Of a stretch of DNA of 2,144 nt, positions 1,986 through 2,144 are shown in pieces. A program made the position numbers and the translations under genes. The number at the start of each line of letters is the position of its first letter. The first letter of the stretch is position 1. The stretch is from Escherichia coli (GTDB lineage: Bacteria; Pseudomonadota; Gammaproteobacteria; Enterobacterales; Enterobacteriaceae), in NCBI RefSeq assembly GCF_003334385.1, contig NZ_QOWN01000102.1, one strand, 5' to 3'. The notes below the pieces were generated by a model, which was given only the letters and a program-made list of their open reading frames with translations, was not told the origin of the DNA and did no database searches.

Positions 1986-1993
1986 TAAGGAGA
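1986..1993 (+). promoter_or_regulatory. Shine-Dalgarno (TAAGGAGA) for the transposase ORF
   Basis: AAGGAGA at 1987-1993, 5 nt upstream of ATG 1999. Confidence 0.6.
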
Positions 1994-1998
1994 ACAAA

Positions 1999-2144
1999 AT
2001 GGAACTTAAAAAATTGATGGAACATATTTCTATTATCCCCGATTACAGACAAGCCAGGAAAGTGGAACATAAATTGTCAGATATTCTACTGTTGACTATT
2101 TGTGCCGTTATTTCTGGTGCAGAAGGTTGGGAAGATATAGAGGA
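1999..2144 (+). CDS. ISAs1-family transposase (H-repeat-associated protein; YhhI/YdcC/YbfD-like), N-terminal 48 codons, 3'-truncated by window edge
   Basis: Translation [48 protein letters not shown] matches, from memory, the conserved N-terminus of the H-repeat (ISAs1 family) transposases found beside rhs loci in E. coli. A strong RBS precedes it. The ORF track omitted it because there is no stop inside the window. Confidence 0.85.

Follow-up and report, generated by a model that had tools for sequence, protein, structure and literature searches.

The 2144-bp stretch of DNA analysed here (the window) is present at 100% identity in many complete Escherichia coli chromosomes; among 5426 genomes, 129 cover at least 80% of it, and 62 records match it at 99% identity or better. 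At its left end is the 3′ end of an Rhs core (positions 5–415, plus strand), which closes with a PxxxxDPxGL-type motif (…GDPLGL). Residues 2–137 of the long open reading frame match the NCBIfam model RHS_core (positions 1126–1261 of 1261; 2.2e-79) as well as TIGR03696 (5e-24), and both matches stop at residue 137 (…DPLGL). In strain G1/2 the reading frame forms the last part of an Rhs gene of 1506 aa situated 3′ of vgrG. Beyond the core motif there is a unique, variable C-terminal region of 245 aa (416–1153, plus strand), the presumed toxin, for which neither Pfam nor NCBIfam gives a match. Residues 24–175 of this tail (window 485–940) are similar to the N-terminal portions of three CdiA-CT tRNA nuclease chains (5J5V_B, 5J43_F and 8ZYC_B; E values of 1.5e-7 to 7e-7), which suggests an entry or translocation module common to Rhs and CDI toxins; the final ~70 aa have no match, the family search included. 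Overlapping the Rhs stop codon (ATGA) is the presumed immunity gene, a reading frame of 125 aa taken from the list of open reading frames (1153–1530, plus strand). Its product corresponds to WP_001077738.1, annotated as a hypothetical protein, with a weak, borderline match to Pfam DUF7674 (E = 0.0011) and none among the NCBIfam models. The core motif, the variable C-terminal region and the small overlapping reading frame that characterise an Rhs toxin/immunity module are thus all present in the window. The tail is assigned the toxin role because it follows the core motif, and the 125-aa reading frame the immunity role, likewise by position; the label of toxin/immunity pair is sound on these positional grounds, the toxicity and its neutralisation being putative.

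The G+C content falls from 62% in the Rhs core to 28% at the insertion sequence (IS) that occupies the right end of the window, and between the immunity stop codon (1530) and the start of the IS (1855) there is an AT-rich spacer of 324 bp (1531–1854, no strand assigned; 28–35% G+C). The sequence-only reading made earlier of this DNA had put the transposase directly downstream of the pair; it does follow the Rhs core, toxin and immunity reading frames in that order, but with the spacer between them 'directly' is an approximation. The spacer moves together with the toxin/immunity cassette and is 99.3–100% identical between the versions at the type VI secretion system (T6SS) and RhsE loci described below. 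Seven bp past the immunity stop codon is an inverted repeat (1537–1580) with 18-nt arms that are 89% complementary, an 8-nt loop and no run of T residues after it; as a hairpin it could serve to end or to process the transcript. The spacer also contains a 39-aa reading frame with a GTG start (1638–1757, MAMAIRCYGVMGFGDLRAKLDCLMKKYGYIFNDVYHIFK) that lacks a family match, is unannotated in RefSeq and is conserved only within the cassette.

The remainder of the window (1855–2144, plus strand) is the left 290 bp of a 1291-bp H-repeat, or ISEc1 element, cut by the window end and recognised by homology to the H-rptB copy of E. coli K-12. This homology starts at 1855, 144 bp upstream of the transposase start codon, and ends 1291 bp later in L001, so that the element begins 131 bp earlier than position 1986, where the sequence-only reading had started it. 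The element ends are CAGGGAAAGA (left) and CTTGCCCTG (right), and these are the same in further independent copies. The left terminal inverted repeat CAGGGAAAGA (1855–1864, plus strand) is present at the ends of all copies compared, and the reverse complement of the right end, CAGGGCAAGA, matches nine of its first ten bases; the element accordingly has both the length (~1.2–1.5 kb) and the terminal inverted repeats of ISAs1-family elements. H-repeat matches starting at window positions 1843–1880 occur in 5334 of the 5426 E. coli genomes, at a median of five places in each, and the DNA is 90–95% identical to copies in 5097 records.

The transposase reading frame (1999–2144, plus strand) starts with an ATG at 1999 behind a Shine-Dalgarno sequence (AAGGAG, 1988–1993), and 48 sense codons extend to 2142 before the window stops inside the gene. 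Where a chromosome is 100% identical to the window, the frame extends to 378 aa and the product is WP_000420722.1, annotated as 'ISAs1-like element ISEc1 family transposase'. The 378-aa protein has the expected DDE domain architecture, with DDE_Tnp_1_assoc (PF13808) at residues 8–94 (7.6e-34) and DDE_Tnp_1 (PF01609) at residues 102–343 (4.8e-30); it scores 416.2 bits on the curated NCBIfam model for ISAs1 family transposases (NF033564; cut-off 70 bits) and is identical to K-12 YhhI at 371 of 378 positions (98%). The 48-aa fragment alone scores 17.6 bits on NF033564 (E = 0.0017), which is under the cut-off, and the family call is therefore based on the near-identity of the fragment to full-length copies. 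The 48 residues are 96% identical to YhhI, 94% to YdcC, 94% to YbfQ and 98% to YbfD of K-12, and the close resemblance to H-repeat transposases that had been proposed from the sequence is borne out. So is the assignment to the ISAs1 family: a lack of similarity to ISAs1-family transposases, named beforehand as the result that would count against it, is the opposite of what the NF033564 score shows. Near-identity to the K-12 H-repeat copies and a place on the distal side of a unit of Rhs core, C-terminal region and downstream reading frame mark the element as an H-repeat. The element is a known one, already annotated in RefSeq, and its position is of a known kind.

Residues D109, D172 and E306, within AIDGK, TTDAMG and HVENK motifs, are candidate catalytic residues of the 378-aa protein. 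Among four intact copies dN/dS is 0.07–0.20 and the differences are mostly synonymous; a ratio of about 0.1 indicates that the transposase gene of the intact copies is kept by purifying selection, and the ISEc1 protein therefore probably still has some activity or role. A 7-bp hairpin in which CUCCUUA pairs with UAAGGAG (1973–1992, plus strand; MFE −8 kcal/mol, z = −2.68) would mask the transposase ribosome-binding site in RNA, and might thereby hold down the translation of read-through RNA. K-12 H-rptB, H-rpt2 (see below) and the RhsE-locus copy have the same stem, which is invariant across the aligned H-repeats. A promoter scan returned sites no more commonly than expected by chance.

The locus is an Rhs gene located after vgrG in a T6SS island between tRNA-Asp (aspV) and yafV. 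In G1/2 the order is tss genes, hcp, vgrG, the 1506-aa Rhs gene, the immunity reading frame and an intact H-repeat (H-rpt1), and to the right of this are dsORF-h1, a second and frameshifted Rhs gene, IS1, a small reading frame, a frameshifted H-repeat (H-rpt2) and yafV. In PKF8 the same cassette is followed by one H-repeat and then yafV. The arrangement had been likened to that of K-12 rhsB, and the order of the parts is indeed that of rhsB, the yhhH fragment and yhhI, but the rhsB locus itself can be ruled out from the flanking genes, which are T6SS genes and yafV. Genes b0215–b0221 constitute Rhs region 1 of Archer et al. 2011 (PMC3032704), and the name rhsG has been given to an Rhs gene that lies downstream of vgrG in a T6SS region of E. 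coli and may be the one at this locus (PMC10711316); apparent mentions of ISEc1 in the latter paper refer instead to ISEc12.

Of the ~129 genomes with the cassette, 124 fall into three arrangements; these are counts of raw genomes irrespective of kinship, and a single event or a few may lie behind each arrangement. The internal arrangement, in which H-rpt1 is followed by dsORF-h1, the second Rhs gene and a second H-repeat, is present in 32 genomes; a chimeric H-repeat adjoins yafV in 27; and in 65 the cassette is at the RhsE locus, with an H-repeat cut at IS position 917 beside pptA. The yafV arrangement was counted with a synthetic query spanning two junctions, as a contiguous 2.7-kb query returned 294 genomes, more than the 129 carrying the cassette, and is thus unspecific. 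The right flank of the element is GGTGGATGG…dsORF-h1 where the intact copy is internal and ACTCTCCCC…yafV where the chimeric copy is distal. Containing only 290 bp of the IS, the window fits both T6SS-locus arrangements equally, and neither the intactness nor the position of its own copy can be read from it. The proposal that the IS marks the distal end of the element consequently holds for the 27 genomes in which it adjoins yafV and fails for the 32 in which it is internal. In the latter, the sequence to the right of H-rpt1 (L003 17146–17655) comprises 49 bp from the very end of another Rhs C-terminal region, then the reading frame downstream of it, dsORF-h1. That C-terminal region and dsORF-h1 are intact in ETEC H10407 (L008 7947–9511) and contiguous with a full Rhs gene, which shows that the IS junction has truncated an Rhs toxin and orphaned its immunity gene; in those genomes H-rpt1 thus borders on a truncated orphan module and does not close the element.

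Several further features of these loci may be recorded. A divergent left-end fragment of a third H-repeat (GGAAAAGCATCACGTGATGC…CTAAATAATT) is present at L003 ~23060–23100, ~250 bp upstream of H-rpt2. In several genomes that carry the window, as at L004 13311–15153 (PKF8) and L001 6287–10153, the Rhs gene is truncated at its 5′ side; that of PKF8 is joined to a TagO/tssA remnant, and an IS1 lies close by in strain 300709. The T6SS island is decaying in these strains. At the RhsE locus of STEC379 (L010 9109–17420), the Rhs gene with the cassette and two small upstream reading frames (one a DUF3969) lie between two direct H-repeats, one frameshifted and the other truncated, in a layout like that of a composite transposon. 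At the K-12 RhsC locus (L005 11951–11995) the right end of an H-repeat (…AATCTTTCCCTG) is fused to position ~25 of the next copy, forming the tandem junction between ybfL and ybfD.

There are two instances at the T6SS locus where an H-repeat marks the breakpoint of a deletion. First, in a three-way alignment the single PKF8 H-repeat has 60 consecutive sites of the H-rpt1 type followed by 23 consecutive sites of the H-rpt2 type, with the crossover at IS positions 612–628 and with the right flank of H-rpt2. Such a pattern is diagnostic of homologous recombination between the two direct copies, which removed ~7.4 kb. The chimera has an open 378-aa frame because all of the H-rpt2 defects are in its left half. 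Second, the K-12 pseudogene yafF (L007 4191–4379) exactly matches the right ~290 bp of H-rpt2 together with the yafV flank, and is the scar of the loss of the K-12 T6SS/Rhs island through a deletion ending inside H-rpt2.

Further evidence comes from the cassette at the RhsE/pptA locus, which is ~97% identical to the T6SS-locus version. Identity between the two is 62–92% to the left of window position ~218, at least 99.3% from there to ~1867 (three differences in 1637 bp), and in the IS is 98% over the first part and ~95–97% deeper in. The RhsE-locus H-repeat is itself a mosaic, albeit on the basis of few sites: positions 1–200 are 98% identical to H-rpt1 as against 92% to K-12 H-rptE, and positions 201–800 are closer to the K-12 H-rptE and H-rptB copies. 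From the identity profile and the mosaic together, the tract common to both loci can be placed between the conserved Rhs core, where it starts, and the left edge or first ~200 bp of the H-repeat, where it stops. Its right end thus corresponds to window ~1855–2055, a segment that overlaps the start of the transposase. The RhsE-locus mosaic could alternatively have arisen after the cassette had moved, by gene conversion between H-repeat copies and not by the original crossover.

With high confidence, then, we regard the end of the window as the left end of an ISEc1 H-repeat of the ISAs1 family that follows an Rhs toxin/immunity cassette and would serve chiefly as portable homology for recombination. 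The data establish what the element is, where it begins and ends and at which locus it lies, that genomes have several near-identical copies of it at Rhs loci, and that recombinants with breakpoints inside it exist. In present-day E. coli, RecA-type recombination between H-repeat copies would delete or exchange Rhs modules, and toxin/immunity cassettes would shift between loci through one crossover in the conserved Rhs core, to their left, and another in the H-repeat, to their right. A role in rearrangement or mobilisation had been proposed from the sequence, and the part of it that stands is homologous recombination between H-repeat copies, with nothing to indicate transposition. We also put forward, tentatively, a narrower reading in which the H-repeat is the right homology arm of a mobile cassette of ~1.8 kb that moved between the Rhs gene of the aspV–yafV T6SS island and RhsE by crossovers in the Rhs core and the first ~200 bp of the H-repeat, with the exchange under selection. 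Selection for cassette exchange would, if this is correct, explain the persistence of H-repeats at Rhs loci without transposition. The chimeras and mosaics show that recombination occurred, not that the IS was selected for that role, and a purely passive role in homology leaves the purifying selection on the transposase unexplained.

An alternative is that the H-repeat is a decaying relic without a role, its adjacency to Rhs genes being accidental and its recombination that of any repeat. Many copies are indeed broken, with frameshifts, truncations or stops in H-rpt2 of G1/2, the H10407 copy, the STEC379 copies, and ybfL, ybfD and yafF of K-12. However, the low dN/dS of the intact copies and the retention of the element in nearly all of the genomes searched, commonly at several places, do not sit easily with simple decay, and we think this explanation unlikely.

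Transposition fares worse. An H-repeat that was inserted as an active transposon, pairs of which could mobilise Rhs modules as composite transposons, would accord with the intact 378-aa frame under purifying selection, the terminal inverted repeats and DDE-type domains, and with the direct H-repeats that flank Rhs modules in G1/2 and STEC379. Yet there is no target-site duplication at any of the H-repeat copies compared; recombination between copies would erase such duplications, so that their absence does not exclude membership of the ISAs1 family. A synthetic query for an empty site, joining the spacer directly to the right flank of the IS, had no match across the junction in the 5426 genomes. 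Most genomes have their copies at the same, conserved places on the chromosome, and plasmids account for only 25 of the 24,525 matching places. Archer et al. 2011, in a statement that cites Zhao et al. 1993 (PMC3032704), note that H-repeat activity has never been observed. The lack of target-site duplications and of an empty site make the IS look like a homology arm for rearrangement and not an active hopper, and we consider active transposition very improbable here. It is scarcely credible that the transposase has been domesticated to serve the host, or the Rhs loci in particular, for instance by rearranging them site-specifically or by regulating them. Purifying selection in the absence of signs of transposition and the consistent association with Rhs loci are compatible with the idea, but the breakpoints lie inside the repeat (IS 612–628 and ~120–200), which fits homologous and not end-specific recombination, and the terminal repeats are kept as in an ordinary IS.

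The H-repeat is of little weight by itself, and its modest value is in the comparative picture. Copies mark the points at which the T6SS island of E. coli has lost Rhs modules, with yafF of K-12 as the last remnant, and where a cassette common to two Rhs loci loses its identity. This offers a concrete and testable route for the reshuffling and loss of interbacterial toxin repertoires.

The H-repeat was reportedly described in 1993, along with the Rhs elements of K-12. The closest known relative of the element in the window is H-rptB/ISEc1 of K-12 (yhhI), with the same length of 1291 bp, the same ends and the nearly identical transposase noted above. The rhsB–yhhH-fragment–yhhI region also has the same succession of Rhs core, C-terminal region, small reading frame, spacer and H-repeat. 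It differs in being located at nikR–yhhJ as opposed to the aspV–yafV T6SS island, in having another toxin/immunity cassette and spacer, and in the left untranslated part of the element, which is ~93% identical at the nucleotide level. The K-12 H-rptE (ydcC) and H-rptC (ybfQ/ybfL and ybfD) copies are similar in the N-terminal 48 aa (94–98% identity) and in their position on the distal side of Rhs elements, although the H-rptC copies are pseudogenes or truncated. The RhsE-locus H-repeat beside this same cassette differs in being truncated, next to pptA, in the 65 genomes mentioned above.

The prototype of the ISAs1 family is ISAs1 of Aeromonas salmonicida, and IS1358 of Vibrio cholerae is also a member. 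The H-repeat shares with the family a single DDE transposase with DDE_Tnp_1_assoc and DDE_Tnp_1 domains that matches NF033564, a length of ~1.3 kb and short terminal inverted repeats; it departs from it in that the copies examined are without target-site duplications or evidence of movement. The displacement of Rhs C-terminal regions described by Jackson et al. 2009 (PMC2935791) is similar to what we see at the left boundary of the cassette, which is in the conserved end of the Rhs core (window ~218), and the orphan immunity gene with its 49-bp toxin stub after the IS resembles the orphan toxin/immunity arrays of the same study. That study makes no mention of H-repeats or transposases, whereas here the right boundary is in or at an insertion sequence, and the only mildly new point is the H-repeat as the recombination boundary of an Rhs cassette common to a T6SS-linked locus and RhsE.
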